Shown one piece after another: positions 11,881 through 53,369 of a DNA stretch of 64,000 bases. The notes below the pieces were generated by a model. It was not told the DNA's origin and searched no databases. It saw nothing but the letters and a program-made list of their open reading frames with translations. Each line of letters starts with the position of its first letter. The first letter of the stretch is position 1. Position numbers and translations under genes: made by a program. The stretch is from an uncultured Verrucomicrobiota bacterium (lineage in GTDB: Bacteria; Verrucomicrobiota; Verrucomicrobiia; CAZIPW01): positions 22,770 to 86,769 of the forward strand of contig CAZIPW010000003.1 of NCBI GenBank assembly GCA_964541675.1. Direction: 5' to 3'.

Positions 11881-12039
11881 CCCCTCTTACTTCGGCTTTT
11901 TCTCCACTTTTTTTAACTCTTTTCATGCGGTTCTGTAAAAGAATCATAAATATAGTATCTGGAACATCATCCATTTCAATGTAAACAGTCCGTCTGAATG
12001 GATTGACTCCTCAAGGCGACGCGTGATTTAGTCGTACAG

Positions 12040-17031: not shown

Positions 17032-17153
17032 AGATATTGCAACAATAAGAAGCCTAGTTGCTCTACGACGGAACTCTTTCGTGGGTTAAGCCAGGAATGA
17101 TCTGAATAAAAAGCCCCTGGAAATTTCCAGGGGCTTTTCAAAGCAATTTGCGA

Positions 17154-17705: not shown

Positions 17706-17734
17706 GACTTTTCTTAAAGGGAAATATATCTCTA

Positions 17735-24043: not shown

Positions 24044-24044
24044 A

Positions 24045-24980
24045 CTAGTACCACTTCCCTATCGTAGCTGGCGCTGTTTGCCCAGTACTGCCGTTCTCAG
24101 GTGCAAACGTCCAGAAGAAAGAATTTGCGCTTGTGCCCACAGCTCCCCATACATCTGCCGTCTTTTTGACTCTTCGCGCCTGATTGCCTGTTTGAATATC
24201 CTTGAGCGCCGTACTGAAGGCAGTAGGGAAACGAAAGACTATAGAGTTCTTGCTACCATTTCTTGTAATGCTGGGAAACGTGGTGGTTATGGTACTCTGA
24301 TCGGAGGCCGTAAATGAGGCTCCCGGCGCAAAATACGAGAAGGTCTGCCCTGCAATCAACTGGCTTCCGTTATTTTCGTATCTGGTAAGCGTATACTTCA
24401 TTCCGCTGACGCCATTTTGCGTAGTCAACATATCAGTCAGGTATACGACGGCATTGATTGTTGGTACCTCGTACGATACACCTGGCGCGCTGGAAGTCCC
24501 TCCCAGAAGCACCAAAGTATAATACTGGACGGAGTTGGCAACGGATGGCTGTCCCAAAATCGACCCATTGCCCGTAATTGCCGCGTTATTTTCTCCCCAT
24601 AGGAAGAGGAAGGCACCATCATTTACAGGAGTTATGGATGTATTCCATATATTGCAATCCCCACCGTGGTTGATCACATTGATTCCCACATATATGTGAG
24701 TCAGAGGAAAACTCAAGGGGTTCCCTCCTGTAAAACCCTCAGTCAAACATGAATTGTACACATAGGCCCTGCTCGCAGAAGAAAAATCCTTTTCTATTTC
24801 GAGCATAAGCCGTGAAAGCTCAACTTGTTGCAGTTGGTTTGTCGGGAAAAGACCGTTGCTGACGCCCATGATCTGGAACATTGTCACGCTGCCAGCCGAC
24901 ATGACAAGAACTGTCAGGGTAACTGTCAGGAGCAGTTCCAGTGTTAGCCATCCCCTACTCTTCTTCTTGGTGTGGCACAT
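24045..24980 (-). CDS. minor pilin / pseudopilin-like protein (311 aa)
   Basis: Prepilin-like N-terminus SRGWLTLELLLTVTLTVLVMSAG. Confidence 0.6.
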   Translation of the reverse strand: MCHTKKKSRGWLTLELLLTVTLTVLVMSAGSVTMFQIMGVSNGLFPTNQLQQVELSRLMLEIEKDFSSASRAYVYNSCLTEGFTGGNPLSFPLTHIYVGINVINHGGDCNIWNTSITPVNDGAFLFLWGENNAAITGNGSILGQPSVANSVQYYTLVLLGGTSSAPGVSYEVPTINAVVYLTDMLTTQNGVSGMKYTLTRYENNGSQLIAGQTFSYFAPGASFTASDQSTITTTFPSITRNGSKNSIVFRFPTAFSTALKDIQTGNQARRVKKTADVWGAVGTSANSFFWTFAPENGSTGQTAPATIGKWY

Positions 24981-24991
24981 GGGTTTACCTT

Positions 24992-26059
24992 CTATCTCTT
25001 GCGGAATATTTTAACAACGGATTGTTCTATGGTAGACTGGGTGGGTACACATGATGTACCATCCTCCGGCATTTTGGAAGGGGTATATTTTCTGAAGATA
25101 GCATCCTGAGGAGAGAGCGTCTGTATCTCACTAAGCTCTTGGGTCTGCCCAACAAGTATGCCGACCACCTCGGCCTTGCGGTTTAACACCACGCTGCCCA
25201 GCAAATCCCCGTCCATTGTTGGCGAAAGTTTGATGGAATTACCCGATGACTCCCGGATAAAGCCCTCCAAGAAGCGTATCCCATCTTTCTGCCCAACAGA
25301 GTACCCCACAGGAAACACTTCCTCCGCCCGCTCAGGTTTTCGAGAGGTCAAATACAACGGGATGGATTTTATATTCACCTTCAGCAGTCCAATGCCTCTT
25401 TTGGTATCGCTCTCCACCAAAGTTGCCCTGCTGTACCCATACGGGGTCAACACACTCAGCTCCGCTCCCTGGGCTATATCCAGGGGAACAACGGCCACAC
25501 CATCCTCGTTAATAAAGAATCCATTGCCGGCCATCTCCCACACATTGTAGTTTGTTTTGCCGGCATCATCTACATCGTGCTTGAAATTAAAGAATATCTT
25601 GAAAGACTCTCCACCAAATCCGCTGGCATCGTCTTTCTGGAAAACAGCCTCCGACTGGCTGATACTCAAAATTGTCACCGTATCGCCTCCCACGGGCGCT
25701 GCAGAGTCTTTTTTCTTGTCTGTGGATTTTTCATCAGATTTGGCCGCCGCGTTGATGGGCACCTTGTCCCGCACACGGTAACTTTTGGCATCTATGACCA
25801 GCAGCGGAGCGCCGTTGGGCTGAATTACGTACCCCTTGATACGCCTCAAGAGCGCTTGCGAAAGCTCTGAATTCGAATCCGAACGAACCTCCGTAATGGG
25901 TTCGAATGGGTTAAAGCCCAGAGTCTCATCTGCGTCCGTGCTGCGATATCCCGGCTCAATGCCGGATTGAATCTCTGGGGCCGGAACCTGCGCGCACAAG
26001 CTCTGTACGGCCATTAGGCTAACTAAAACCAGCATGATCGACTTTGATGTGTTCCTCAT
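24992..26059 (-). CDS. secreted hypothetical protein (355 aa); possible degenerate trypsin-like or PilP-like accessory
   Basis: Signal peptide MRNTSKSIMLVLVSLMAVQSLCAQ; C-terminal GNSIKLSP..VGILVG reminiscent of a GDSGGP region but not conserved. Confidence 0.45.
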   Translation of the reverse strand: MRNTSKSIMLVLVSLMAVQSLCAQVPAPEIQSGIEPGYRSTDADETLGFNPFEPITEVRSDSNSELSQALLRRIKGYVIQPNGAPLLVIDAKSYRVRDKVPINAAAKSDEKSTDKKKDSAAPVGGDTVTILSISQSEAVFQKDDASGFGGESFKIFFNFKHDVDDAGKTNYNVWEMAGNGFFINEDGVAVVPLDIAQGAELSVLTPYGYSRATLVESDTKRGIGLLKVNIKSIPLYLTSRKPERAEEVFPVGYSVGQKDGIRFLEGFIRESSGNSIKLSPTMDGDLLGSVVLNRKAEVVGILVGQTQELSEIQTLSPQDAIFRKYTPSKMPEDGTSCVPTQSTIEQSVVKIFRKR

Positions 26060-27003
26060 GATTGTACCAGTGCCTTAAAATCCAGGTTGGGCTCCATTTT
26101 ATCCCATTTTCCAAATTCGATATCACTTCTGTCCTGTAGATATCCCCCGAGCTCCAAGGTCGTCTCTGAGAGGTTACCCGACACAGTCCATTTAAAGAGC
26201 ACCTTCTTTCCAAAAACCCTCTTTGCTATTACAGCGGCCTCGGCACAGTTTGCAAAAAAGACCCTTATCTGTTCTATCGTCTCGGGGCTGCTATTCTTGT
26301 CCAAGAACAACGGTGTGGCCCGAAAAACTTCCGGGGAGAACCTTTCATTGTCATAATCGAACACAATAACGTGCGCCTGGCTAACAACCGTTCCCAGTAC
26401 TATAAATTCCTCCTGTATTTTCGGATCTTCTCCACTCCAGCCCTTGTCCCCAAACATGGCATTCAAGAGTGCATAAGGCGCCAATTGGCTTCTGACTATC
26501 GTCAATCCATGGTCCTTAAGTCCTTTTTCAAGCTCCATATATGGGGCTTTATTCACCGCGAAGAGTATCCTCGTCTGACGGTCCGGCGCCATTAAGATCT
26601 GGTAGACCTTTTCCTCTTCGTAGACAGAACCTATCAGGCTCTTGGGATCGGATCTGAGTTTTGCCTCTAACATTTCGCCCTTCTCTGCCCGGGGCCCATT
26701 TTGGGCCTCACAGTACAGATTCATGGCACTATACAGCACGGCTACGCAGTTGCAGTCTGTTCTCTGCTTGAGTGTTTCACACACCTCTTCTATGGGTGTC
26801 ATCACCGGCAGGGATAATTCTTCCGGAGCGACCTCCATCCCCCTGTCAGTCTTCGTGGCAAAGGATATTTTTATCACACTTGGGCCCCAGTGCAAAAGCG
26901 CCAGCCTTTTTCCGGGAAGTCTCAAATACAATGGATATGCCACGTCTGCCGGATCAACCCGGAAGGCATTTAGCAAACTCAGATTGATTATCTCTCTAAT
27001 CAT
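26056..27003 (-). CDS. hypothetical cytoplasmic protein (PilM/GspL-like position); start revised to the internal Met (ORF track gives 27129)
   Basis: Starting at MIREIINLSL gives an ATGA overlap with the upstream gene that ends at 27000; no TM segment; position matches PilM/GspL in pilMNO-type operons. Confidence 0.4.
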   Translation of the reverse strand: MIREIINLSLLNAFRVDPADVAYPLYLRLPGKRLALLHWGPSVIKISFATKTDRGMEVAPEELSLPVMTPIEEVCETLKQRTDCNCVAVLYSAMNLYCEAQNGPRAEKGEMLEAKLRSDPKSLIGSVYEEEKVYQILMAPDRQTRILFAVNKAPYMELEKGLKDHGLTIVRSQLAPYALLNAMFGDKGWSGEDPKIQEEFIVLGTVVSQAHVIVFDYDNERFSPEVFRATPLFLDKNSSPETIEQIRVFFANCAEAAVIAKRVFGKKVLFKWTVSGNLSETTLELGGYLQDRSDIEFGKWDKMEPNLDFKALVQS

Positions 27004-27629
27004 TTGATTTCTCCTATCATCTTGTAACGGAACCCCACCGTCAATCTGACTTCTTCCGGCGATCGGGCCACCCAACGCGTTTGTACTATACGCAGGCTTC
27101 CCATCTCGTTTTCCGCTCTCCTCATCCAAGCCATCAGCTGTTGAAAGGGCCCCACCATTGTTACTTTTAGCTCTATCAGATTGCGGGACTGCTGCGTGGT
27201 TATCACTGGCGGGATCGGCATACCCGGTGGCGGCGCCCCCACAGCTCTGGTAGAAGGCATCTTGGGGCCAAGACGATTACTACGGACACCGGACTGCATA
27301 TTCAGAGGGGACACCTCAATGACGTTTACCCCAAGTTCCTCAGCCATCTTTTGGAGTTTCTGTTTCAGTTTTGACTCGTCTATTCTGCCCTCTTTATCAA
27401 GCCATCTGGCAAAATAATCATTGTAAATCTTGTCGATCTTCTGGTTCTCGGCCAATTTTTTTTGTTCGTCCTCCAGCTGTTTCTGGGATATTCTTAGCAT
27501 CTCGCCAGAGCTTTTGTATTTCTTCATCTTATCCAGCGTCGCTACGCTTTGCATGACAAAGAACCCTATGGCGGTTATGTATACCAACATCAAAATCGTT
27601 AGCGCAGGATAGTACCCCAGCTTCTTCAT
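27000..27629 (-). CDS. bitopic PilO/PilN/GspM-like protein (209 aa)
   Basis: N-terminal TM helix ALTILMLVYITAIGFFVM, then a coiled-coil region, then a C-terminal domain; this architecture is typical of pilus alignment proteins. Confidence 0.5.
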   Translation of the reverse strand: MKKLGYYPALTILMLVYITAIGFFVMQSVATLDKMKKYKSSGEMLRISQKQLEDEQKKLAENQKIDKIYNDYFARWLDKEGRIDESKLKQKLQKMAEELGVNVIEVSPLNMQSGVRSNRLGPKMPSTRAVGAPPPGMPIPPVITTQQSRNLIELKVTMVGPFQQLMAWMRRAENEMGSLRIVQTRWVARSPEEVRLTVGFRYKMIGEIK

Positions 27630-28285
27630 AGCCTCTTTTCCTTTCCGGCCACGGCGGCTCTTGGCAGATCGGGAACTTTACCCGTACTATATTTCACATT
27701 CTTGTCTCCACCCGGGTAATACTGGCTGGGCAACACAACGCTGGCATTAAGTTCCGTTCTACCACCATCCCCAACGCTCTGCTGTCTATCCTGCTGGTCT
27801 ACCCCCAATGTCGTCAGCTTGTCTTCAAAGTCCTCTGTATTTGGAATACTACCCCCGCCCCTGGAAAAGAATCTCATCATCAGAGAAAAATGCCCTTCCT
27901 CGCTGGGTTTGGCCTCCAGTGACATCTCCTGCAACCGTGTATCCCTAGGCAAAGACTTGTATATCTCCTGCAAGAAACTGCTCAAGTTATAATTTCCCCT
28001 CAGCCAACGGTTCCAGTCCTCATAATGCGTCTTGATCTCAATACTATGCGCGCCCTGCGCCTGAGTCGCCGATATCTGAGCGTTAATTTCATCCAGTTTC
28101 TTCCTGTCCTGATTTGCAAGATTATCCAGTTGGTGTTCCCGAAACACGAACACGGACCATACAGCAATACTCAACAATACCGCTATGTAGGATCCTGCCA
28201 CTATCCAACGGAAGGACTCCGGCGCGCACGGCTTGTAGTTGCGCGCACTCTTGATGTCCTGCGGGTATGTTTCGAGTAGTTGCAT
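27626..28285 (-). CDS. bitopic PilN/GspL-like protein (219 aa)
   Basis: TM helix WIVAGSYIAVLLSIAVWSVFVF followed by a coiled coil; 4-nt overlaps with both neighbouring genes. Confidence 0.5.
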   Translation of the reverse strand: MQLLETYPQDIKSARNYKPCAPESFRWIVAGSYIAVLLSIAVWSVFVFREHQLDNLANQDRKKLDEINAQISATQAQGAHSIEIKTHYEDWNRWLRGNYNLSSFLQEIYKSLPRDTRLQEMSLEAKPSEEGHFSLMMRFFSRGGGSIPNTEDFEDKLTTLGVDQQDRQQSVGDGGRTELNASVVLPSQYYPGGDKNVKYSTGKVPDLPRAAVAGKEKRL

Positions 28286-29367
28286 TATTCACCAGGCATT
28301 TGGGCCGTCACCAGCGGCAGCCATTTTTGATAAGCCATGTCATCTATCATATGCTTTGTCTTGGCTACCTCCAGCGAGAGTTTGAAATCTTGTTGACCTT
28401 GCGCCTTGCCAAGAGATATCTGCTGGCGCATACCAGTCCAGTTGCTCTTGCGTATACAGTTGCTGATGGCCGGAGTTCTCTTGGCTATTTCGTGAATTGC
28501 AAAGCGTGTCCCATTGGACAAGGTTATCAGCCTCTGACAGACGATCATCTCCAAGGCTGTGGCTAGAATCGCTTTTGTAAAATCCTGCCGATTCTCGGGA
28601 ATGAGCTGCAGATATCGTTGGACGGCTTCTTCCGGGCTCCCCGTATGAAAGGAAGCCAGCACCAGGTGTCCTGTTTCTGCTGCCTGCAGAGCCACCTCTG
28701 CTGTCAGCTGGTCTCTGATCTCTCCGACTAATATAACGTGTGGCCTCTGTCTCAGAGCAGCGCGCAACCCGGTGGCAAAGCTTTCCACATGGGTGCCGAC
28801 TTCCCGTTGGCTGTACAAGGCCGCCGTATTGTCTGGATAGATATATTCTATGGGATCTTCCAGCGTTATAATATGTTCCTTCCTCCTAGTTCCGCGCCAC
28901 TTCAGGAATGACGCTATTGTAGTTGTTTTGCCCGCCCCGGTGGGTCCACATATCAATATTAGACCTCTATCCAGCGTAGTACCCGCTTCCAACAGCTGTT
29001 CCGGCATATTAATTGAGGTTGGTTCCGGTATTCCCGTCGAGAAAGGCCTTAGCACTATTCTGTGTCCTCTCATGTGCCTGTATAGCGCTGCCCTAAAACG
29101 ATGTCCTTCTACACTTAAGGCCGCGTCGATACTAAATCTATTTTCCTTGGCATCCTCTTCTTCCAAGGTATGGTTTCTAAGCTCCCCCATCAGTTGCAGA
29201 AACTCCTCTGTATCTACGTTGAACTGGGAGTCCGAAATCAATTCTCCACGCCTTACATAGAGCAATAGCCCTTTACTGTCGACAATCAGGTCGGAGATGT
29301 CTTTATACATCTCCAACCAATGCTTGATTCTTTCCCACAAGACTGTTTCGTGAAAGCTGGCTGCCAT
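28285..29367 (-). CDS. pilT: PilT-like retraction ATPase (360 aa)
   Basis: Walker A GPTGAGKTTT, VGEIRDQLTAE..TGHLVLASFHTGS; PilT-sized, lacks the GspE N-terminal domain and has no tetracysteine motif. Confidence 0.75.
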   Translation of the reverse strand: MAASFHETVLWERIKHWLEMYKDISDLIVDSKGLLLYVRRGELISDSQFNVDTEEFLQLMGELRNHTLEEEDAKENRFSIDAALSVEGHRFRAALYRHMRGHRIVLRPFSTGIPEPTSINMPEQLLEAGTTLDRGLILICGPTGAGKTTTIASFLKWRGTRRKEHIITLEDPIEYIYPDNTAALYSQREVGTHVESFATGLRAALRQRPHVILVGEIRDQLTAEVALQAAETGHLVLASFHTGSPEEAVQRYLQLIPENRQDFTKAILATALEMIVCQRLITLSNGTRFAIHEIAKRTPAISNCIRKSNWTGMRQQISLGKAQGQQDFKLSLEVAKTKHMIDDMAYQKWLPLVTAQMPGE

Positions 29368-29518: not shown

Positions 29519-30094
29519 ATGCAAAACTATCTTGTCAAGCTGGCTCAGAAACATCCGGAACTGCGGGTTTTTTCCGATGATATAGAAACACGAATTTCCT
29601 ACCCTATCGCCACAGATCACCTCATCTTCATGCGTACCACGGAGCCCAAACCCAGACCCATTGGTGAACTGCTTGAAGTTGTTGAGACTACGCTGGGCGG
29701 CAAGTTTCGTCTTCCTGTGGAGACCTCCCCCGAAAGAGCCTTGGAACCCATCGGTGGACGTACATCCGATTGTCATATGACTGGCCCTGTGGCGGCCATT
29801 GAGATATGGTCCATTGAGCCCGGTTGTTACGACCTTGTACTCAAGGTTCCACGGACTACTGCTCAAAGCTCCACCGTTGGCCTACCTCTCATAAATCGTT
29901 TTGTAGACCAGGCCAGGGAAATATCACGGCTGGTAGATACAACTGACCTTATACGCTTTCATACAGGGCCGTCTTTGACCGTTCGGGAAGCACAAAGCCA
30001 GTTGTCTTTCCTAGAAAAGAAGACCGGCACAAGACTTGATTCAGAGAGTCTTATGCAAATATTGGAACCACAAAACAAAGCCAGGCTCAATTAA
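29519..30094 (+). CDS. hypothetical protein (191 aa)
   Basis: Divergent from pilT across an AT-rich 150-nt intergenic region; the antisense ORF 29444-29866 is less protein-like. Confidence 0.45.
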   Translation: MQNYLVKLAQKHPELRVFSDDIETRISYPIATDHLIFMRTTEPKPRPIGELLEVVETTLGGKFRLPVETSPERALEPIGGRTSDCHMTGPVAAIEIWSIEPGCYDLVLKVPRTTAQSSTVGLPLINRFVDQAREISRLVDTTDLIRFHTGPSLTVREAQSQLSFLEKKTGTRLDSESLMQILEPQNKARLN

Positions 30095-30120
30095 ATTGTA
30101 ATTTTGCCGATGAATAGGAT

Positions 30121-30903
30121 ATGTCGGGGAAAAACTTGGATACTCTCGTTATCTTGCTGATTGTGGTCGTGTGTACTTTCATTCCCCTCAAGAATCTATA
30201 TCAGAAGCTCACAGAAGTTCATACGGCCCCCAAAGAGGAGATTGTGTCCCCTACCCCCGCCCCTGCGAGTGGCACTCCAGACGTTAACCTGTGCCCCGAC
30301 GAGCCCGAACAGGAAAATGTATACGATTCGGATGCCCACACATTCTCCCTCAAAGGATATAAAATACACGAGCTGGCCCATTTTCAAATCAAGGGCATAC
30401 TTCTCTCAAGGCATTTCTACAACTCAGATTCCCAGCAATACAGATCTGTTCTTTCCCCGGGGGATTTTGCCCTCGGCTGGGGACCCATGTCGAACCCGAC
30501 GGTACTTACAAAATTTACATATTTTCAAAAGAACAGGTTCCTGTACTTTGCCTGTTATGATAGTTTCTCCCATGAAGCTGAGCGTCTGGGCGCAGATTTC
30601 CATCTTGCCAATATTCACCTCATTCCAGCCAATGATTTGATTGCCAATACTTTAAGCTCCATTAAACCCAGGGATATTGTCACACTCAAAGGCTCCCTTG
30701 TTGAAGTTTTCTATAACGACCAACGCGTTTGGAAGAGTTCCATGACCAACAACGTTACCGGGGACGGTGCTTGCAAGGTTCTTTTCTTGAAAGATATTGA
30801 ATGGAACTCAGGCCCTGAGTCTACTAAAGATGTTCCCCTACCCCACGAACCAGAGCAACAGGATAGCCACGGGCAGTCCCTCCCCAAATCCATGGGAACG
30901 TAG
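30121..30903 (+). CDS. hypothetical membrane-anchored protein (260 aa)
   Basis: N-terminal TM helix LVILLIVVVCTFIPL; the rest is soluble. Confidence 0.5.
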   Translation: MSGKNLDTLVILLIVVVCTFIPLKNLYQKLTEVHTAPKEEIVSPTPAPASGTPDVNLCPDEPEQENVYDSDAHTFSLKGYKIHELAHFQIKGILLSRHFYNSDSQQYRSVLSPGDFALGWGPMSNPTVLTKFTYFQKNRFLYFACYDSFSHEAERLGADFHLANIHLIPANDLIANTLSSIKPRDIVTLKGSLVEVFYNDQRVWKSSMTNNVTGDGACKVLFLKDIEWNSGPESTKDVPLPHEPEQQDSHGQSLPKSMGT

Positions 30904-30959
30904 ACTCACCAATATGACAGGCTGGCCTACAAAAGATATGGAAGCACCAATGACAGAAA

Positions 30960-31290
30960 CCCAGATTATTCTCTGATGTCATCCGCCAGATATTGATACA
31001 TACTATATATTAGACATATAATCATATTATCTTATATACATATGGTACTATAGTATTACTATCATATAGCTATACCATACATTAGGATACATTCATATTA
31101 TATGATCATAGTAATATACAAGACTATATATAACTCGACAATAGATAGGCTGGATACTGTTCATATAATATGATAGTAATATATTATTGATGACATATCA
31201 TTATATAATATGACTATATTATAACAAACGGCACTTTCACATTGACACCACCGTGCCTCAAGTCTATCTATAGTTAAGTATCAAGATATT
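30960..31290. repeat. AT-rich region with degenerate direct repeats (TATGAT(C)ATAGTAATATA-like) upstream of parA; candidate centromere (parS-like) or origin region
   Basis: About 330 nt with more than 75% AT; repeated units atatgatcatagtaatata, atatgatagtaatata and atatgactatatta. Confidence 0.5.
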
Positions 31291-31295
31291 AAAGT

Positions 31296-31883
31296 ATGAC
31301 AACGCGAATTGCTTTTGTAAATGGGAAGGGTGGGGTTGGCAAAACCACTTGCGCCACCCTGATTGCCGCCGCTCTTAAAGAGGCAGGCCAAACTGTATCC
31401 ATACAGGATCTTGATCCGCAAGGAAGCGCGACTACGGCAGCCAGCATATTTGAATTGTCTATAGGAGAGGCAGAGCCCATTGTGATCATGGATACTGCCC
31501 CCAATATCGACTCGCCCGGAACGTTGCACGCGATTAGCTCTGCTAATTTGGTTATCCTTGTCACCACTCCAAGCCCCCTAGACCTGGCTACAACCGCAAC
31601 GACCGCAAAACGCATTGGGGACGAAAGGGCAGGGGGACTTACCCGTGTTCTCTTTAATCTTGTCCAGACCAACAACCGTTTTTTTCAAGAAATGCCTCAG
31701 ATTGCCAAGGAGATACCCTTTCCTGCTTTCAAGACTTTCATCCCCAGACTGACAACCTATCAGGTGGCACAGATATCTGGATGGAAATCGGTCCCTGCAA
31801 GACATCGCGAGAACATCATACATGTAGCCATAGAGATCATGAAAGAGCTGCAATTTATCCAAGAGGAGGTCAACCACATATGA
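31296..31883 (+). CDS. parA: ParA/Soj-family partition ATPase (195 aa)
   Basis: Deviant Walker A KGGVGKTT at the N-terminus (MTTRIAFVNGKGGVGKTTCATLIAAAL); small type Ib ParA size. Confidence 0.85.
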   Translation: MTTRIAFVNGKGGVGKTTCATLIAAALKEAGQTVSIQDLDPQGSATTAASIFELSIGEAEPIVIMDTAPNIDSPGTLHAISSANLVILVTTPSPLDLATTATTAKRIGDERAGGLTRVLFNLVQTNNRFFQEMPQIAKEIPFPAFKTFIPRLTTYQVAQISGWKSVPARHRENIIHVAIEIMKELQFIQEEVNHI

Positions 31884-32263
31884 ACAAACAAGGCAACACT
31901 GCCGAACAACTGCGCGCGCTCATGCGTAGTCACATTCAAAATTCCACCATCACGTCACATTCCCAACCCACCGTTCCAACGCAGAAAACTCTCGTATCCC
32001 CCGCACCTGTCCCTGTTGCACATTCTGAAGTACTCCCCGTTCCCAAACCAGCTTTGGCTCCCCGGCATAGCCTTCGCCTTCTACAAACAGAAATTTCAAA
32101 AATCAACATCATTATCAACTCGACTATGAACATGACCGGGGAGAGAATCACCTTGACAGATGTACTGCGGGTAGGACTTGGAAGGCTAGGGGAAGGTGCC
32201 CCAATAAGCCGGGAAGAGATTGATATACTGAGAACCACCGATGGCAGGAGAACGCGGCACTAA
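31880..32263 (+). CDS. small partner protein of ParA (about 127 aa); candidate centromere-binding ParG/ParB-like protein
   Basis: Start codon overlaps the parA stop (ATGA); basic N-terminus; start revised from the ORF-track 31781. Confidence 0.5.
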   Translation: MNKQGNTAEQLRALMRSHIQNSTITSHSQPTVPTQKTLVSPAPVPVAHSEVLPVPKPALAPRHSLRLLQTEISKINIIINSTMNMTGERITLTDVLRVGLGRLGEGAPISREEIDILRTTDGRRTRH

Positions 32264-32533
32264 AGATGCCGACCGTAGAAGTATAGTCACAGAGAGTACT
32301 GTCTCTCATGAAGACGTCCCTAATCAATAGGTGTATTTTTTCTCGAATATCTAGCTCTAATGTGGAGTTTCTATATTCCCAGCTCTTTCGCCTTTCCCAT
32401 AATCTGCCTTGCAGCCCCGAGCAGCCTCCTTATCTTCACTTGCTCCAACTCTTTCCGGACATCGTTCATCATCTGGAGCAAGCCTAATGTATTTATCACT
32501 TTACTGTCAAAAGGCTTCTGTTTCGTTTCAATT

Positions 32534-33016
32534 TTACTGTTCCGGCGACACAAGCCAATGCAGGCCATCAAAAAGAACCACAAAAGTATTATCCAAGAGA
32601 ACTCCGGCGCGTGTCCGGCCATCGGGCAGGACAAGTATGGCACTCTTCAAACCGGTGGTAGAAAAACCGCTCAAGCGTACATCCGATGGATCAATACAAC
32701 GCGAGGATTTCTCATAAACCCAAGAGCCGCCGACTCCCATAAGGTCGGGTGCGCCGGACATATAATGAATATGAGCAGGGGAGGCAAAACAGCAAATCAA
32801 ATTCCGAGTCAATCCTGTATTGTCGCCCTCTCCGTTACCCCTGAGTCCACCCGCAGCTTTCCATCTTTCCTGAATTTTATCTAGCTCTAGTTGCAAAGCA
32901 ACAGCCTGGGAAGCTCTAACTTCCCGAGAGCCTTGTATGACTCGGGGTGTAACAAAAGATGTGATTAACAGGAATACTGATAGAAACATTACTATTTCGT
33001 ACACAGAGAAGCGCAT
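32534..33016 (-). CDS. small hypothetical membrane protein (160 aa)
   Basis: N-terminal TM helix IVMFLSVFLLITSFV; competing plus-strand ORF 32360-32884 makes this uncertain. Confidence 0.3.
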   Translation of the reverse strand: MRFSVYEIVMFLSVFLLITSFVTPRVIQGSREVRASQAVALQLELDKIQERWKAAGGLRGNGEGDNTGLTRNLICCFASPAHIHYMSGAPDLMGVGGSWVYEKSSRCIDPSDVRLSGFSTTGLKSAILVLPDGRTRAGVLLDNTFVVLFDGLHWLVSPEQ

Positions 33017-33226
33017 AGGGACTTGTATGAAAAAAATAGATCTTCCTCAAGCTGTAAGATTAGAGCGTCTCTGACTTCTGCCATGCATATTTAGCTCTGT
33101 ATTGTTAATTATTCATTTCTAATATGAGATTTATATAAGGATACACTACAATATATGTATTATATGTAATGAACCATGCGAGAGCTTGTTTCACCTTATT
33201 TTTATTGAGTATAAGGGAGAGCTCCT

Positions 33227-33401
33227 GTGGGGATTGTCTAGGATAAAGTAGTGCGGAGAGCTGGGGCACTTGGGAAGTTGTCTAACGCGGCGCGATAGTC
33301 CATCCTTGACGCCTCGGGGGGATGTCTAAGATGGGGAAACGAACGCTCTTGGGGAAATGTCTAGTATGGAGTCTGCCAAATCTTCTTGCGGGGAATCTCG
33401 G
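33227..33401. repeat. iteron-like array: 4-5 direct repeats of GGGGA(W)nTGTCTA spaced about 36-44 bp apart
   Basis: tGGGGAttGTCTA (33227), tGGGAAgtTGTCTA (33271), GGGGGGATGTCTA (33315), tGGGGAAATGTCTA (33349), GGGGAATCTCgg (33389); immediately 3' of the Rep-like gene. Confidence 0.6.
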
Positions 33402-33464
33402 AAGAGTAGGGGTTTCACAGAGGAGAGAGGGCATTCAATCATTCTCCCCCATGAGATGTACTCA

Positions 33465-34901
33465 TTACAAGTTACCGCGGAGGGCGGAGAGCATTTCCGC
33501 TATAAGTTTCCCTGTAGGGGATTTTGGAGGGGTCTGAGACATCGCGACATACTTGGCTTCTCCTAGGATGTCCATCCAAGTGCGTTCGGGCAGAAGTTTC
33601 TTTGCCATTAGAAGAAAACTCTCGCAGGAAGACGGTGTGATGCGAGCTGTCTTTAGTAGTTCTATATCGTTTTGTGAAAGGGCTATATGGGTGTTCCGAA
33701 TGCGCCGCAAGAACTCGCCGTCATCGCGTCCCGATGCATTCCACGCCTGGTATATCTTAAGATGACGGATAGAAGGAATATTCGCCGATTGGGACGCGAC
33801 AGGCCTGTCTGTCAGACTTTTTTCGTTTACTGAAACTATTGATTCAATAGTTCCTTCTGATAAGGTACAATCGATTGCCTGGCTATGGCTGACAGAACGA
33901 ATTTTAGTATCTGCATACTCATTCAGGACGGTGTCCCGCGCGCAGACACCGGCATAATGAGGGGTTGTATAAGCGGTAGGCTGCTCGCAATGGGCGCTCC
34001 TGTCCAAGGGTACTATGTCAGCCATAGTACGTATGACAGTACCACTGGGTATCTCGCTTTTGGGAGAGATCCAGACGAGTAGGCAATCATCGTCAAGTGT
34101 TGTTGAGTCTGTGATGGACAAGTTTAGTATACCATATGGAGTGGGAAGTTGATTGATCTCATCAAAAATAGGCCTACTGCGATGCCCGTAAAATACTGCG
34201 CGACGTGACGACCTAAAAGGCGATATTGGTTGTCCCAGATGCGATAAAAGCTTCGAGAAAGAGATCTTAAAGGGATGAGACGCGTGCGCTCGGCTATAAT
34301 GGGCCCAAGTGGTTAATATCAGATAAAGGCATCGCGCAGTTCTCGATCTAATGGAACAGAGGGCGGGCAAATGGACGGGAGCTGCGAGTTTGGTGTTCGC
34401 TATTATATCGATAAACGTTGGGGAAAATATTACGCGGAAAGCTGGAGCCGTCTTCCCAAAAACAGGCCGTGTTCGGCCGGCTTCCAGTACTATTAACTTT
34501 TCGTATCGGGTCGCCAGATGGTTGGAAGACTGGATTGCTATATCAATGGATTCTAGTGTTGCCAAGGTGGTCTTGAGTAATTCCCTATGGTGGGCGCTGC
34601 AACACGTTCGTGAACCCAGGGCTCTAAAGAGCTGGTTATAGGTTATGGGCTGTCCATTTGTTCTCTCAACCAGACTCAGTAACGCAGCTAGGGCAGTAGT
34701 CGTCTGGAGCGTAAAGCCCGGACAGCAGTTGGGACTCTGGTTTCTATTCCAGCGATCTACCCTCCCCATGATGATATCCTCGGATTCGTCTTGATCATTC
34801 TGTCTTGCCAGAGTGCAGGCAACCCCTTCGCCCGCCAATGGAAGGGCATGTTCCAAGAGCGTTCTTGGCAGCCGGACAGTTGGAGAAGGTAGGATATTCA
34901 T
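33465..34901 (-). CDS. Rep-like protein (478 aa); putative replication initiator by context
   Basis: Large ORF flanked by the iteron array (3') and AT-rich direct repeats (5') and adjacent to parA; no catalytic motif recognised, so the function is inferred from context only. Confidence 0.45.
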   Translation of the reverse strand: MNILPSPTVRLPRTLLEHALPLAGEGVACTLARQNDQDESEDIIMGRVDRWNRNQSPNCCPGFTLQTTTALAALLSLVERTNGQPITYNQLFRALGSRTCCSAHHRELLKTTLATLESIDIAIQSSNHLATRYEKLIVLEAGRTRPVFGKTAPAFRVIFSPTFIDIIANTKLAAPVHLPALCSIRSRTARCLYLILTTWAHYSRAHASHPFKISFSKLLSHLGQPISPFRSSRRAVFYGHRSRPIFDEINQLPTPYGILNLSITDSTTLDDDCLLVWISPKSEIPSGTVIRTMADIVPLDRSAHCEQPTAYTTPHYAGVCARDTVLNEYADTKIRSVSHSQAIDCTLSEGTIESIVSVNEKSLTDRPVASQSANIPSIRHLKIYQAWNASGRDDGEFLRRIRNTHIALSQNDIELLKTARITPSSCESFLLMAKKLLPERTWMDILGEAKYVAMSQTPPKSPTGKLIAEMLSALRGNL

Positions 34902-34919
34902 TGATGGACTTGCCAGTTT

Positions 34920-35110
34920 CTGATTCTGGAAGATTATTTGGTGAAGACAACAACTTTATGATATAACTATTTATGTTATGTAATTCTAATATATAAGAAT
35001 ATTGTATATATGTAACTAGTATATATATTATTGTCGTACATATGTAACTAAATTATATAACACGCTTATAAGCAAAGTGTTACGAATGCATTGAACGCAT
35101 ATATGTATTT
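34920..35110. repeat. AT-rich region with direct repeats (ATATGTAACTA x2) upstream of the Rep-like gene; candidate DNA-unwinding element or promoter region
   Basis: More than 75% AT; tatatatgtaactagtatatat and tacatatgtaactaaattatat. Confidence 0.4.
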
Positions 35111-35420
35111 GTCATATAATATGAACCAACATTGTATGACGAAATTGAAATATGATCTTACATATGCCCAATGTAGTATTGGCGTGCAGATATTCACAAG
35201 AAGTTCACACCGCTTTTTATCCATTATGTATAATATATCTTGGGTATCGACGGCAGCGGTGGTTGGCTTATGGAGTTTATTTCTTGCCAAGGCAAATCGA
35301 AAATTTCTCACATTACCGCCAGACTAACGCAGGTAGAGAACAACAATCTCTGTTTTGAGGCCAGCTGCCCGCCAGTTTTTTCAATCCTGATAGGGAGATG
35401 GTGCCATCGGAGGCATGACT

Positions 35421-36023
35421 CTATTCCAATGATCGCTTAATGATGGCCTTATACATTACTATGGTATAGATCTTTGGGTTCTCAACAAATATGCGGGCGT
35501 ATTCCGAGGAGACTTCTTCCGGTTGGGTCATACAACTCAGACAGGTATCGATGTATGCCCTTGTCGTGCTGATAACCTGATCCGACAGGGCAAATATACT
35601 TTCGGCATACTGCTCTTTAAATTCTCTCAGTCGCTGGCTATCGGCGTGTTGAGAATCTGTCACTGTGCTATAGGCGGTATTGTCGGGCACAATTTCCTTC
35701 TTGTAGATGAACTCCGCGATACTGCCATCCGGATTAAAATTGGGAGCGATTAAATCAGAGACTTTTATCAATGGTTCCATAGCGGGGAAGAATTCCCATT
35801 CACGATCCACCTTTTTCGGATCGAAATTGGGTGCCCTTAGCCTGAACAGAATACTTGGGTCTGCAACAGCGGCCAGAGCATCGTACGAAATAGCGTCACA
35901 GCTAATCCCCATAGGCGCTATGTATAACTCATAGGCTGACTGCAGCACAGGATGAGTGGGGGTCATGTCTCCCAGATCATGCCATCGGGTCAGGGCCTGC
36001 TGCTGAATGGGGGTCAATGTCAT
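35421..36023 (-). CDS. hypothetical protein (200 aa)
   Basis: Clean ORF with no recognised motif; sits between the replication module and ArdC. Confidence 0.5.
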   Translation of the reverse strand: MTLTPIQQQALTRWHDLGDMTPTHPVLQSAYELYIAPMGISCDAISYDALAAVADPSILFRLRAPNFDPKKVDREWEFFPAMEPLIKVSDLIAPNFNPDGSIAEFIYKKEIVPDNTAYSTVTDSQHADSQRLREFKEQYAESIFALSDQVISTTRAYIDTCLSCMTQPEEVSSEYARIFVENPKIYTIVMYKAIIKRSLE

Positions 36024-36148
36024 ATGCTATCTTACGGAGTTTTTAGCATGTTTTTAAAGATCTCTGTAAAGAGGCTTCTCGTTTATTATTTTTTTTACAG
36101 ATCCCGAATTTTTGTCTTCAGGGTGTGCTAAGCTGTCCGTAAGGAAGA

Positions 36149-36955
36149 GTGTTGTTTATGCAGACGCGACAACCAGACAAGTTTGCTCTTATAGCCGGAG
36201 GGTTTGCGGTGGCGCAAGCCCCCTTCCGTCTGCCAGTCGATGCGCTGTGGCCTGAACTTCTCAGGAAAACAGAAGATGGATGGGAACGCCTCCCAGTAGA
36301 GGGTTTTGGGGTCTTTGAATTGATGCGGATCTCTCAAGCCCGGCGCTACACCAGACCTTTCTGGTTGACGCTCAGGGATGGCCTACAGGCCCGTGCTTCG
36401 TTGAGCTCGGAGGCTGTAGGAGTGACAATCCCGCAGTGGAAATGGGCGCAGAAGGCAGGCGATTGGAAGGGCGACATTAGTCCGCAGAATGCTGGCGACA
36501 TACTGTCGGCCAGCGATCTTTCCGATGAGGCAGACCAAGTCGTTGCCATGCGCCCAGTAGTGGTCTTTAATGCGGATGAGTGGGATCGGATTGACGCATT
36601 GCCCGCCTGTCAGCCCAGAGAAGTGCCCACCAAAGAGGAGGCTCTTGAAAGGGCCAGGAAAGTGGAGGAACAGGGGGTTGGTTGCGAGATCCGTCACGAG
36701 GGGGAAGTGGCCTATTATAATCCATCCCTAAACTATATTTGTCTGCCGCCCAAAGACAAGGTTGGTGACAAGGCCTATTATTGGATGCTCTTTGAACAGA
36801 TGGGGCATGCGGTGGCCAGTCGGCACCAGCTTGACCTATGGAAGGACGAACCGGAAGCCACTATAGCAAAAGAGGATCCGTCAACGCGGGTGCTATATGC
36901 CAAAATGGTGGCTGCAAGGCTGGCTTATGAGACGGGAATCGATGTGCTAGAATAA
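36149..36955 (+). CDS. ardC: ArdC-like antirestriction protein (N-terminal ssDNA-binding domain plus C-terminal zincin-like domain with a degenerate HExxH)
   Basis: C-terminal pattern HEGEVAYYNPSLNYICLPP....AYYWMLFEQMGHAVASRHQLD..YAKMVAARLAYETGI parallels ArdC (hGGnrAyYsp.D.I.mP....YY..llHElaHwTGh..RL.R..YA.EEL.AE), but the first His of HExxH is replaced (FEQMGH). Confidence 0.6.
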   Translation: MLFMQTRQPDKFALIAGGFAVAQAPFRLPVDALWPELLRKTEDGWERLPVEGFGVFELMRISQARRYTRPFWLTLRDGLQARASLSSEAVGVTIPQWKWAQKAGDWKGDISPQNAGDILSASDLSDEADQVVAMRPVVVFNADEWDRIDALPACQPREVPTKEEALERARKVEEQGVGCEIRHEGEVAYYNPSLNYICLPPKDKVGDKAYYWMLFEQMGHAVASRHQLDLWKDEPEATIAKEDPSTRVLYAKMVAARLAYETGIDVLE

Positions 36956-38080: not shown

Positions 38081-40240
38081 TTACTTGGAAGTCAGATCTA
38101 TCAGTCCGTATCCGGCCTCCAACTCTGTCAGAAGTTCCTTGAGTCCCTTGGTGCCGTGCGAAAGCCCTTCGAGGAAGGCAGCCCATGCCGCCTGGGAACT
38201 GACAGGATCCATCTCTCCGCGCCGCGGGATGCCGTTGAGAAACTTGATACGATCCATGTAGCCGTTGATTTCAGAGATTATATTTGGGGCTACTTCATCA
38301 TCGATGACTTTAATGCGGCGTGCCAGTGCCTCTTCAAGGCTTCCGGGAGGCCCCTTATGCAGTTTATCCAGAGCCTTATCAGTCTCGTTAATGGCATTTG
38401 ACAAGGAAACTGGCAGTGCGCCACTATGGTGTATATATTCATGCTTCCTGTTCTGCTTTTCTGCGGGAGATAACTCTCGGCCGTCGGGGTCCTTTATGTC
38501 TTCCAGAACAGCGTATTCCTGTGCCTCGTTCAAAGCCCTATCTACGGCTTCTTTAATCAACCTATGAGAAGTGTGATTGGCCACAGAACCATATTTTTTT
38601 CCTGGGGTCTCCGGGTTATCGTCACGGACGGTATTGGGCAGTAGAATGCCCTGCGCAATCATCATGTCGTCGCACAACGTTACCAAATCCTTATCCTTTC
38701 CAAACAGAGTTCCTTGAATCTTGGGGTCGGCTCGCAGCAGTTTATCTATTTGTTCTTGGACTTCCGCAGTGGTATTCTCCTCTATGCTTTTTTGGAATTT
38801 ATGTGTCTCCGTTTTAAATGTCGTTCTGGAGATATTAGCAACATTTGTGGAAAAAGCTTCCAGAACCGTGCGATTCATGAGGTACTCCATCCGCTGCTCG
38901 GCGTTGCGCTCGCTTCTGAGAGCGTTTTCTATTTTTCCCCCATCTGATTTGGTTTGAGACACCAGCTTTTTTAGCGCCCCCTCCATCTTTTTCTTTTTAT
39001 TAGGATCTTCTTCTGCCTTGATTTGATCTTCAATCTTGGTTTTTAACTTAGAGTTAAGTTCTTGAAAACCCTGTTCATCGTCATCGAAATGCAAATTGTG
39101 GGTCAGCCGATCAACTTGGATCTCTTTCATTTTGAATGTGCCGTCCGCCTGCAATTCTGGTAATCCGTTTGCACCGAGGACAACCTTTTGAATTTTCAAG
39201 ACTTGCCCCGTTTCGTCCTTCAAGGCCGAGCTGAGTTTACCGCCAAGGATCTCTTTGAATGTTTTTTTGGGTTCCTCGCCGTCCTTTCCAACATATTCCT
39301 CAAATTTATCACGAAATTTTTTATCAGCTTCATTCTGTTCTTCGGCATATTCCCTAGCTCTCTCCTCATGTTGGAGCCGGGCCCTCTTTGTATCTTCTGG
39401 TCTGCTATATACGTATGGAACAAACTCCGGATAGTCGGGTAGGAGTGAGTATATTCCTTCTCCGTTGGCTTGTCGATCCGCTTGCGAGACAAGATTGCTC
39501 GCCCTCAGACGTCGGATAAATACATCTGTCAGGCTTAAAGACATAGGGTCACCGGCCGCATCATCCATTTTGAACTTGGCTCCCATCAGGCCCTTGATCT
39601 GCTTGGTGCCCAATTTAAGTTTAGAGGTACGATCGGAGGACATGAGTTCGGGAGCCAACTTTATAAAGAGTTCTGAAGTCATGCGGTCTGCCATGACGCG
39701 CTGAAATTTATCCTGCTCCGTATTAAGAGGATCCTCCAAATCGCCATATTTGACCTGATGTACGCCCAACTTGCCCTCATTATTCTTCCCATACCACTTT
39801 ACAGGAACGTCTCTATTGTGATTTTGAACATAGCTTGCGTAGTAATCGCCCTCGCCTTTATATATTTGTTTAGAGACGGTAAGCTCTGTATGCCAGCCTG
39901 TCATATACGCAACCTTTGCGTATCTGCCCAAAAGCCCACGACCCTGTGGAGAGGCGGGGTCTATTTTGATAAAAATTTCTTTGCCTACCACTCCGGAGGT
40001 ATCTTGAATGGCGAACTTAAACCCCGTGATATCGCCATTGGTGTCCAGAAAGAGCTGTCTGACAATTCCCCGGATTGACGTATTAAAGTGCTGTCCGCCC
40101 GATCCCACCATCTGATCCAATATGGGTAGATTGTCGAGCAACTCGTATCCTGTCTTGCGAAATTTAAATGACGGATCATCCTTGTCAAATTTTGGTTTTT
40201 GGGGTGTGGTAGGTGGTTCTGGTGTCGGTACGTCGGCCAT
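38081..40240 (-). CDS. large hypothetical protein (719 aa), highly charged, no NTPase motif
   Basis: Long clean ORF; Lys/Glu/Asp-rich; no Walker A or relaxase His triad recognised. Confidence 0.6.
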   Translation of the reverse strand: MADVPTPEPPTTPQKPKFDKDDPSFKFRKTGYELLDNLPILDQMVGSGGQHFNTSIRGIVRQLFLDTNGDITGFKFAIQDTSGVVGKEIFIKIDPASPQGRGLLGRYAKVAYMTGWHTELTVSKQIYKGEGDYYASYVQNHNRDVPVKWYGKNNEGKLGVHQVKYGDLEDPLNTEQDKFQRVMADRMTSELFIKLAPELMSSDRTSKLKLGTKQIKGLMGAKFKMDDAAGDPMSLSLTDVFIRRLRASNLVSQADRQANGEGIYSLLPDYPEFVPYVYSRPEDTKRARLQHEERAREYAEEQNEADKKFRDKFEEYVGKDGEEPKKTFKEILGGKLSSALKDETGQVLKIQKVVLGANGLPELQADGTFKMKEIQVDRLTHNLHFDDDEQGFQELNSKLKTKIEDQIKAEEDPNKKKKMEGALKKLVSQTKSDGGKIENALRSERNAEQRMEYLMNRTVLEAFSTNVANISRTTFKTETHKFQKSIEENTTAEVQEQIDKLLRADPKIQGTLFGKDKDLVTLCDDMMIAQGILLPNTVRDDNPETPGKKYGSVANHTSHRLIKEAVDRALNEAQEYAVLEDIKDPDGRELSPAEKQNRKHEYIHHSGALPVSLSNAINETDKALDKLHKGPPGSLEEALARRIKVIDDEVAPNIISEINGYMDRIKFLNGIPRRGEMDPVSSQAAWAAFLEGLSHGTKGLKELLTELEAGYGLIDLTSK

Positions 40241-40929: not shown

Positions 40930-41835
40930 TTATCTTACATTGATCGCAGAGGTCGGTGGAGGTAGATTTGGAGTTGGATAGGCACTACCTGCAGTGGCAG
41001 GCGCAGGCTGCATAACCGGGTATCCGGGAGCTTGCGCGTAGCTGTTTCCAGCCGCCGGGGCATAAGCAGTCGGAGCCGCCATTGCGCCTGGAGTGGTGTA
41101 ATTGATTACCTGAGAGGCGGCCGGCAACGGGGCAGAAGTCTGGTAACTTGGTTGGGCAGCGGAGGTCTGATAGGGGACTACCGGGGCCGGAATCTGATTG
41201 GAGGGTACCAGAGCTGAGGAGGGTACCAATATCCATCCCAGTGACTCGTCAAATATCGGTATCTCGCCGTTTTGTGCCATCGACCGGGCAAGAGGCTCCT
41301 GGGAACGTTCAACAAAACCGGTGACGCGCACCGAAGAGAGATCCTGTATCAAGGAAGCCTGTATGGGGCGCACGCTTGGACCAGCCGGGGTCTGGGCGGA
41401 TCCCGGAGCAACCATCGGATTGGCTGTATATCCATTTTTGGAGGGTACCGGAGGAACATTTTCCGACGGGACGTAGGCTCTCGTGGGATTGCGCAGAGCG
41501 TCGACGTTCCAGCCGCCGGGTTGCTTGACGACATACTTGACTGACGGGCCAAAAGCTTCACCTTTCTCATTCACATAGGCATCGAGATCCACTCTCACTA
41601 ATTGGGCATCGTTCCAGACCGGCAGAGGGCTTTGGTTGATGGTGGCAGGTTGTGGCTCATTGATGGCTGCGTTGGGGACCACGCTCAGGGCGGGCTGCAC
41701 GGGTGGTGGTGGCTCGCGACGGGCCTGGTAGACTTCTATGGCGGACGGACCCGGGAGTGTTCTGTGTTCCGGGAGGAAGGAACCGCAGCCGGCCAGCAGG
41801 CCGGTGAGGGCTATGAGAAGGAGAGGATAATACAT
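40930..41835 (-). CDS. Pro-rich lipoprotein (301 aa), T4SS-associated
   Basis: Lipobox LLAGC after the signal peptide; Pro/Ala/Gln-rich low-complexity C-terminus; last gene of the trb-like operon. Confidence 0.55.
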   Translation of the reverse strand: MYYPLLLIALTGLLAGCGSFLPEHRTLPGPSAIEVYQARREPPPPVQPALSVVPNAAINEPQPATINQSPLPVWNDAQLVRVDLDAYVNEKGEAFGPSVKYVVKQPGGWNVDALRNPTRAYVPSENVPPVPSKNGYTANPMVAPGSAQTPAGPSVRPIQASLIQDLSSVRVTGFVERSQEPLARSMAQNGEIPIFDESLGWILVPSSALVPSNQIPAPVVPYQTSAAQPSYQTSAPLPAASQVINYTTPGAMAAPTAYAPAAGNSYAQAPGYPVMQPAPATAGSAYPTPNLPPPTSAINVR

Positions 41836-41871
41836 GGAATTATGTACGGTTGGATTTTGATTAAATTTAGA

Positions 41872-43479: not shown

Positions 43480-43491
43480 ATTTTTATAGAA

Positions 43492-44364: not shown

Positions 44365-44392
44365 ACCTAGGTTCTTTTACGGATTAATGGGA

Positions 44393-45942: not shown

Positions 45943-46025
45943 GATGGTACGTATGCCCTAACGGACGAAAAAGGAGCGATATTTAGAGTAGAAACCGAGA
46001 TTACAAACGAGACGGGAACCTTCTG

Positions 46026-49885: not shown

Positions 49886-49967
49886 GACCCGAAGTTTAGC
49901 ACGGATTTTACAGTATTGTCTATTAAATAGGAATTATTTACATATGTAAAAGACATAGCCGTGGGTT

Positions 49968-50513: not shown

Positions 50514-50515
50514 AA

Positions 50516-53074: not shown

Positions 53075-53076
53075 GC

Positions 53077-53364: not shown

Positions 53365-53369
53365 ACGTG

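Follow-up and report, generated by a model that had tools for sequence, protein, structure and literature searches.

A probable iteron-type replication and partition module with an unannotated Rep family in a plasmid-like element of an uncultured Verrucomicrobiota bacterium

What maintains a stretch of DNA in which a partition gene pair, a repeat array and an unannotated 478-aa gene lie among flagellin, pilus and metabolic genes? The question is raised by a 64,000-nt stretch from an uncultured Verrucomicrobiota bacterium (the window; all coordinates are window positions), where an initial annotation recognised an iteron-type replicon with type Ib partition, carried either by an integrated element or by a megaplasmid. 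With a probability of roughly 80%, the module is the basic replicon and partition unit of a conjugative plasmid-like replicon of ~100 kb, belonging to uncultured Verrucomicrobiota of peat and lake metagenomes. Its design is that of a classical iteron/Rep replicon with type Ib-like partition, and its Rep comes from an unannotated family. Two results sustain the iteron-type reading: the 478-aa protein is predicted to have an initiator fold, and the repeats are conserved in related elements.

The module extends over 30.9–35.3 kb. Inspection of the sequence and its open reading frames (ORFs) recovered every listed element in the order first described: an AT-rich island, parA, a partner ORF, a pilin-like ORF, an AT-rich block, four direct repeats, rep and another AT-rich island.

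30961–31250, no strand: AT-rich region of 290 bp upstream of parA, 26% guanine–cytosine (GC) content; candidate centromere/operator
31296–31883, plus strand: parA, 195 aa; Pfam matches, deviant Walker A motif
31880–32263, plus strand: ParA partner, presumed centromere-binding protein, 127 aa; ATGA overlap with the parA stop
32534–33016, minus strand: pilin-like ORF, 160 aa, convergent with the partner ORF; weak N-terminal similarity to an N_methyl protein of the related element L004
33071–33210, no strand: AT-rich block of 140 bp, 28.6% GC; presumed DNA-unwinding element
33226–33364, minus strand: iteron array, four copies of YTAGACAYYTCCCCAA; found with a position matrix, conserved in relatives
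33465–34901, minus strand: rep, predicted 478-aa initiator; AlphaFold2 (AF2) model, Foldseek, remote homology
34911–35180, no strand: AT-rich promoter/leader region of rep, 270 bp, 26% GC
35188–35199, minus strand: DnaA-box-like conserved 12-mer TTGTGAATATCT; unique in the window, kept in relatives

The three AT-rich islands (30961–31250, 33071–33210 and 34911–35180) all lie below 30% GC. Related elements, named L001 and so on, were collected through homologues of the window Rep and partner proteins; scans of genome and metagenome contigs yielded only L005 (identical to L001), L011 (identical to L009) and L012 as additions.

The AF2 model of Rep, built from a 76-sequence alignment, reaches a mean predicted local distance difference test (pLDDT) score of 84.7, exceeds 90 over most of residues 1–290, and is confident over 1–290 and 375–478. 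It consists of an N-terminal beta extension (1–60), two winged-helix domains in tandem, each a helix plus beta-hairpin (WH1, ~60–175; WH2, ~176–290), a disordered linker (295–372) and a conserved helical domain (375–478). In a Foldseek search of the PDB, the best 10 matches are all replication initiators, aligned over 277–310 columns that include both winged-helix domains. RctB domains 2–3 match best (E 4e-6 to 3.5e-5), and RepE54 bound to iteron DNA also matches (E 1.5e-3 to 8e-3). The next match, a non-initiator, comes only at E 0.1, which leaves a gap from 8e-3.

Homology points in the same direction. Among 5.8 billion clustered proteins there are 12 close Rep homologues, 39–59% identical and none named, and the alignment contains invariant CSAHHRE, RSR..R and GHR motifs. 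Public gene calls examined for the family are unnamed or read “hypothetical protein”, and those for rep itself are inconsistent (186, 434 or 478 aa). Since the first 45 residues are conserved among homologues and confidently modelled, the 478-aa start is correct and the 434-aa call too short. A profile of the close family retrieved 123 proteins, mostly of ~400 aa, from 1.84 billion representatives. In the remote family, 14 of 65 members match Pfam Rep3_N, the WH1 domain of iteron initiators (Pfam), and 2 of 65 match RPA. Two of the remote proteins, P0018 (24.4 bits) and P0031 (22.5 bits), exceed the Rep3_N gathering cutoff of 22.4 bits, and in both the match covers the stretch aligned to window Rep residues ~60–180, that is, WH1. 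The gene had been called Rep-like from the sequence, and the structural matches to RctB and RepE54 together with these Rep3_N matches bear this out. From the model and from transitive homology, with no direct family match, we conclude that the 478-aa protein is a predicted WH1–WH2 initiator, a divergent one of the RepE/pi/Rep_3/RctB kind.

The C-terminal region of Rep also matches alone in other unannotated proteins in the profile search; Pfam assigned no families to 10 profile-search matches, most of which cover only this region. Carried on an 80-residue disordered tether, the helical domain probably makes a protein contact, speculatively for helicase loading or origin pairing. It is present as well in a 415-aa protein of the distant element L022/L023 (3476–4723), a clear family member (hhalign probability 99.4%). 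That element further carries ArdC, ParA, the partner and a TrwC relaxase; no obvious iterons were seen, reading by eye, in the 600-nt intergenic region downstream of the L022 Rep homologue.

The second line of evidence is the repeat array. Four iterons YTAGACAYYTCCCCAA lie on the same strand (minus-strand reading) at 33226, 33270, 33314 and 33349, spaced by 44, 44 and 35 bp, just past the rep 3′ end, and the AT-rich block comes next. If two mismatches are allowed, the window holds ~15 occurrences of the motif, the number expected by chance; with a position weight matrix, only these four sites in the 64 kb reach at least 17 bits. Estimated from the 2-mismatch rate, four same-strand sites within 140 nt are expected by chance in fewer than ~1 in 10,000 windows. 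The proposed iteron array is thus confirmed as four phased copies.

The repeats also recur at 43–45 bp spacing in five independent related elements (L001, L004, L009, L012 and L015) whose Reps are 44–59% identical. L001, a 79-kb contig of an uncultured Verrucomicrobiota metagenome-assembled genome with a 45% identical Rep, has four copies (TAGACAWYTCCCCAA) at 45, 44 and 44 bp, which lie 135 nt past the rep stop and have an AT-rich block beyond them. The array lies directly downstream of rep in L009 (three copies, 45 bp apart), L012 (two strong copies at 43 bp and a third, weak one) and L015 (four copies at 44 bp); L012 and L015 had been left out of matrix building. A further sequence, GGCAGACTCCATA, directly precedes one iteron, namely the rep-proximal copy in the window (33349–33375, minus strand) and the copy nearest the AT-rich block in L001 (11472–11498); it may be an extra half-site.

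The AT-rich block follows the array in all six loci examined. Within it, the motif TATATAAATCTCAT is common to the window, L001 and L015, and a TAGGGT..ACCCTA element occurs in L004, L009 and L012. The cumulative G−C minimum falls at 33000 in the window and at 33064 in a 79.8-kb composite, in which overlapping contigs of identical sequence lengthen the window. Split into two segments, the 1-kb skew values divide best at 33000 (mean −0.079 on the left, +0.054 on the right; Mann–Whitney p = 6e-8), and none of 10000 bin permutations reaches the observed depth. Third codon positions show the sign change as well, although most genes to either side are encoded on the minus strand. Skew is already positive (+0.126) in rep, which lies right of the block, therefore the switch lies left of rep and not at 35 kb. 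The position of the skew minimum on the AT-rich block argues for the signature of a long-used bidirectional origin beside the iterons.

From the observed repeat array and its conservation, the AT-rich block and the skew change point, together with the initiator fold, a course of initiation can be inferred. Rep monomers would bind the four 15–17-bp iterons just past the rep stop codon, and the 44-bp phasing, about four helical turns, would align the bound proteins along a single face of the helix. Once the AT-rich block at 33071–33210 had melted, the host's helicase and replisome would load and start bidirectional replication.

The pilin-like ORF that adjoins the AT-rich block on its other side (32534–33016, minus strand, 160 aa) has an unusual N-terminus, MRFSVYE(IV) followed by a hydrophobic helix, with almost no leader peptide. 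A pilin-like N_methyl gene of L004 (10721–11368) keeps this adjacency to iterons and AT-rich block, although rep is 6.5 kb away there. The ORF beside the origin is probably an accessory or cargo gene.

On the other side of rep, non-coding conservation is also considerable. The AT-rich direct repeats described upstream of rep are present: within the island at 34911–35180, Tandem Repeats Finder gives 1.9 copies of a 32-nt unit at 34989–35050, and on the rep strand TTACAT repeats stand at −146, −114 and −82, in 32-nt phase. At the corresponding position, related loci carry ATTACACYTTA in pairs with a 64-nt interval, so TTACAY repeats in 32- or 64-nt phase occur upstream of rep in all loci. These repeats may be promoter or autoregulatory elements. 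The 12-mer TTGTGAATATCT has a single copy in the window, ~290 nt before the rep ATG. Exact copies are found once per element, in the same place and orientation, in L001 (9700–9711), L004 (3515–3526), L006 (3268–3279) and L007 (3453–3464), always ~290–305 nt upstream of the rep start, although the Reps of those elements are only 44–47% identical. Within the 12-mer, TGTGAATAT fits 8 of the 9 positions of TGTGNAWAA; judged by this sequence, the 12-mer resembles a DnaA box, and it sits across the rep gene from the iterons. Most relatives have a second TTGTGGACA, one helical turn farther on. A scan for consensus promoters and terminators was uninformative. An Rfam scan of 30000–36500 found no RNA family, and therefore no known antisense-RNA control.

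How would such a replicon be segregated? ParA matches Pfam CbiA (7e-16), AAA_31 and ParA, and reaches 94 bits against NCBIfam ParA_partition, under the cutoff of 180. It is a small Walker-type ATPase (195 aa) that has no N-terminal DNA-binding domain, and its deviant Walker A motif, GKGGVGKTT at residues 10–18 (NGKGGVGKTT with the preceding Asn), is as first described. The proposed translational coupling of a small partner is likewise seen in the sequence: the partner ATG overlaps the parA TGA as ATGA (31880–31883), with GAGGAGG 11 nt upstream of the partner start. The parA gene adjoins rep in L001, L004, L006, L007 and L008 as well. The partner family (18 homologues in a homologue search, none named) always stands beside a small ParA, in L001, L022, L023, L025 and others. 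In its alignment the N-terminal helix and the C-terminal domain (RYSLRLL...TLTDVLRVGLGRLG) are conserved, and the Pro-rich linker between them varies. The AF2 monomer model, at a pLDDT of 69, has a helix at 7–20, disorder at 21–49, an extended segment at 62–68 and helices at 69–86, 92–98 and 111–120, a predicted shape compatible with a ribbon–helix–helix fold but no proof of one.

A candidate site for the partner lies upstream of parA, where the palindrome TCATATWATATGA occurs exactly at 31093–31105 and 31161–31173 and with one mismatch at 31201–31213. It has three exact copies over the AT-rich islands, two upstream of parA and one, TCATATAATATGA at 35112–35124, upstream of rep. L025 and L028, whose partner is 52% identical, carry TTCATAT three times directly and once inverted just upstream of parA, and this heptamer is the half-site of the window palindromes. 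Such clusters in two lineages give modest support, on sequence grounds, to a centromere/operator there. The long AT-rich island upstream of parA is not kept in L001, L004, L006 and L007. ParA and the coupled 127-aa partner would segregate the replicon copies; the partner probably binds the TTCATAT palindromes upstream of parA, and this binding would also repress the operon. The palindrome copy upstream of rep may couple the partition and replication modules. The system is best termed type Ib-like, a label that rests on the size of ParA and on the small coupled partner.

Several results weigh against this interpretation. The window Rep has no Pfam or NCBIfam family at E ≤ 0.1, and a PDB sequence search with the family profile returned chance-level matches only. 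Of the two checks on the 478-aa protein, fold and profile, the first thus gave an initiator and the second no direct match, and the predicted link to Rep_3 runs through structure and through intermediate sequences. At ~0.5 (target-normalised), the Foldseek TM-scores are moderate, with root-mean-square deviations of 7–9 Å. Neither blastn of the module nor tblastn of the window Rep matched any of the 72,556 plasmids in PLSDB; the remote relatives P0018 and P0016 had no tblastn match there either, and therefore no experimentally replicating relative of the family is known. The usual iteron period is ~22 bp, about half of the 44 bp observed here. Beside the iterons there is no TTATCCACA, the canonical DnaA box, at up to one mismatch, except for a single 1-mismatch site in L004. 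In L004, moreover, the three copies, at 45 bp, are separated from rep by 6.5 kb and from parA by 3 kb, therefore the array could be tied to something other than Rep.

On the partition side, the partner has no Pfam or NCBIfam match and no PDB-sequence match with its family profile, and a Foldseek search of its model returned nothing under E = 4. The recurrence of the palindrome TCATATWATATGA was reached by 59 of 1000 local shuffles, so the centromere assignment is statistically weak; exact k-mer repeats upstream of parA, direct or inverted, do not exceed what dinucleotide-preserving shuffles of the region give. The degenerate AT-rich repeats first described there therefore stand as to base composition (26% GC) and are not borne out as to repeats; type Ib partition stands as to the small ParA and its coupled partner, with the repeat-based centromere a candidate that lacks statistical support. 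Shuffle tests of repeat content were not significant in any of the three AT-rich islands. The region upstream of parA was dropped as a demonstrable repeat array, its repeat content being no higher than that of shuffles.

The L004 arrangement leads to another explanation of the repeats, in which the 44-bp-phased TAGACAYYTCCCCAA motifs are the partner centromere or operators of the pilin-like gene and the true origin lies elsewhere, for example in the AT-rich region upstream of rep. It would account for the L004 array, which stays with the pilin-like gene and AT-rich block, and it draws further on the atypical period and on the strongly conserved non-coding motifs upstream of rep, among them TTGTGAATATCT. 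Yet the array directly follows rep in 5 of the 6 lineages that have it, and the conserved AT-rich block always comes after it, as in classical vegetative origins (oriV). The skew minimum at 33.0–33.1 kb and the positive skew of rep place the switch left of rep, and a type Ib centromere is normally found upstream of parA. Kilobase distances between rep and oriV are also known in other plasmids. We regard this explanation as very unlikely, and an iteron array serving an origin at the AT-rich block is retained.

Is the module then part of a plasmid or of an integrated element? The window carries VirB9/CagX, VirB10/TrbI, a VirB4-like ATPase and ArdC. Annotation of the window ORFs recognised no relaxase or coupling protein; more distant relatives carry a TrwC relaxase. 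Large ORFs of 641–897 aa with no Pfam match lie at 38081–40240, 46026–48719, 21836–24043, 55951–57945 and 12040–13965, and one of them may be a divergent relaxase or coupling protein. The ArdC-like gene, encoding an anti-restriction/zincin metallopeptidase (36149–36955, plus strand), is two genes from rep and is kept near rep in L001, L004, L006 and L007. The type IV secretion region (40930–53900) has a GC content of 0.54–0.59, against 0.43–0.52 elsewhere in the window, which suggests a mosaic origin of the conjugation genes.

At least two clusters resembling type IV pilus or type II secretion systems are present, with secretin, T2SSE ATPases, T2SSF and pilin-like genes. One occupies 15.8–29.4 kb (15790–29367); a second begins at 61088 and runs past the right end of the window (L020). 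Pilus genes were at first counted among chromosomal-type neighbours. Synteny with L001 extends to the pilus-like genes beside the module, therefore the cluster belongs to the element and is not chromosomal. Farther left, at 989–14976, the skew arm of the plasmid module also holds four flagellins, a Maf-like (MptE-like) gene, a GT2 glycosyltransferase, gpmI and a sigma-70 family factor. Motility genes and a glycolytic gene thus appear to be carried by a conjugative replicon.

These neighbours invite a different account, that of a chromosome-resident integrative and conjugative element (ICE) which the module maintains, with Rep and ParA active only in transient excised replication and the flagellin, gpmI and sigma-factor genes as chromosomal neighbours. 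The four flagellins, gpmI and the sigma-70 family factor lie only 15–30 kb from the module. A distant ParA/partner/TrwC region (L024) has a leucyl-tRNA synthetase gene nearby on a contig of 1.25 Mb; L024 may be a relative in integrated form or the product of mis-assembly, and the wider family may include integrated members. Iteron-type Rep genes are known from some ICEs and genomic islands, for example SGI1 (PMC7433901).

The skew speaks against residence in a chromosome arm, since a long-resident island would be expected to have one skew sign. The skew here is V-shaped, including third codon positions, with its apex on the iteron/AT-rich block, and it spans the flagellin/gpmI region and the 80-kb composite. 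No integrase or recombinase was found among window ORFs of at least 150 aa, and a scan of the window gave no tRNA. The integrase sought outside the window was also not found among the called genes of the ~6-kb left and ~9-kb right flanks, nor was a recombinase or tRNA, all but ~20 kb of the 99.5-kb contig being covered. The source contig measures ~99.5 kb in separate records, 99,499 bp (JGI, Ga0455670_0001849) and 99,585 bp, with identical Rep and partner. Other members of the Rep family lie on contigs of 72.6, 79.3, 111 and 113 kb, giving a cluster at 72–113 kb, and synteny is kept with the 79-kb L001 contig. Of the two settings first offered, the autonomous large replicon of ~100 kb is therefore favoured, because of the V-shaped skew, the lack of integrase and tRNA in the stretch covered, and a ~99.5-kb contig in independent assemblies; the integrated option is disfavoured, and the ICE account as a whole is unlikely.

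An autonomous replicon could also be a chromid or secondary chromosome, with an RctB-like initiator and essential or core functions, and not a dispensable plasmid. RctB domains 2–3 are the best structural match, and the replicon bears gpmI, a sigma factor, flagellins with glycosylation genes and several type IV pilus-like clusters. Against this, ~100 kb is small for a chromid, no rRNA, tRNA or other core genes were seen, and there is a conjugation apparatus with ArdC (relaxase and coupling protein not recognised in the window). RctB domains 2–3 share the WH1–WH2 fold of plasmid Reps (PMC5397143), and RepE matches almost as well. The chromid explanation is likewise very unlikely, and the conjugative plasmid-like replicon is the reading taken further here.

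A broader proposal, which we hold only tentatively and at somewhat less than even odds, is that an unrecognised winged-helix initiator family associated with the Planctomycetes–Verrucomicrobia–Chlamydiae (PVC) superphylum, built from N-extension, WH1–WH2, tether and C-terminal module, drives conjugative megaplasmids of 70–110 kb in uncultured Verrucomicrobiota from 44-bp iteron origins. If true, the cargo of such megaplasmids would include genes for flagellin, glycosylation, type IV pilus-like structures and even glycolysis, and the family would give the first defined basic replicon for genetic tools in Verrucomicrobiota.

Plasmids of Verrucomicrobiota and other PVC bacteria are barely catalogued. 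The rep gene, iterons, unwinding element and par cassette, ~4.3 kb in all, form a minimal part for shuttle vectors in a phylum with almost no genetic tools. The Rep profile combined with the TAGACAYYTCCCCAA array is a signature by which such plasmids can be spotted in metagenomes and separated from chromosomal bins, and flagellin, pilus and some metabolic genes of these bacteria appear able to ride on conjugative replicons. The mechanism is classical; the value lies in cataloguing and tool-building, not in a new principle.

Among known systems, the nearest frame is given by RepE of the F plasmid and the Rep_3 initiators (PF01051; pi of R6K, RepA of pPS10). The modelled tandem WH1–WH2 of the window Rep aligns over the whole of RepE54, its remote homologues reach the Rep3_N threshold, and its gene lies beside helically phased direct repeats and an AT-rich unwinding block. 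Unlike these initiators, it has no direct Pfam match. At roughly double the size of RepE, it has a beta extension of 60 residues at the N-terminus, a disordered linker of 80 residues and a further helical domain of 100 residues. The iteron period is 44–45 bp instead of ~22 bp, the array is downstream of rep, and a canonical DnaA box next to the iterons is lacking in the window.

RctB of Vibrio cholerae chromosome 2 (PDB 5tbf, 5ubf; PMC5397143) provides, with its domains 2–3, the best match (E 4e-6), and it too has additional domains around the winged-helix core. There is no detectable sequence similarity, with 9–11% identity to the window Rep in the structural alignment. No counterpart of the 39-mer regulatory sites or of the methylation-dependent 11/12-mers of RctB was noticed, though no search was aimed at them. 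Pgp2 of the Chlamydia plasmid was recognised as an iteron-binding initiator from an AlphaFold model, with no recognisable sequence homology (PMC11895440). The window Rep is likewise a PVC-superphylum protein, here of a plasmid-like replicon, recognised by predicted structure; the two are likened by this logic. The Chlamydia plasmid is small (eight proteins; PMC11895440), in contrast to a conjugative replicon of ~100 kb. In PLSDB, tblastn with the window Rep gave no match at all.

For partition, the comparison is with type Ib systems such as ParF/ParG of TP228 and ParA/ParB of pB171 par2. The window ParA resembles theirs in being a Walker-type protein of ~200 aa that has no N-terminal DNA-binding domain; the partner is small and downstream, with a flexible N-terminal part and a compact C-terminal domain, and an AT-rich candidate binding region lies upstream of parA. 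In contrast to those systems, a ribbon–helix–helix fold of the partner is a candidate from a low-confidence model (pLDDT 69), and centromere repeats do not rise above shuffles. RK2 (IncP) is likewise conjugative, and its iteron origin and trfA can lie kilobases apart, a separation of origin and initiator gene also seen in L004. It differs in that TrfA belongs to another sequence family and that its iterons are 17-mers at ~22-bp spacing, flanked by DnaA boxes. What is new is the unannotated Rep family that has no PLSDB match, its N-extension and tethered C-terminal domain, the 44–45-bp period and the array downstream of rep; the overall plan of an iteron plasmid with type Ib-like partition is already known.

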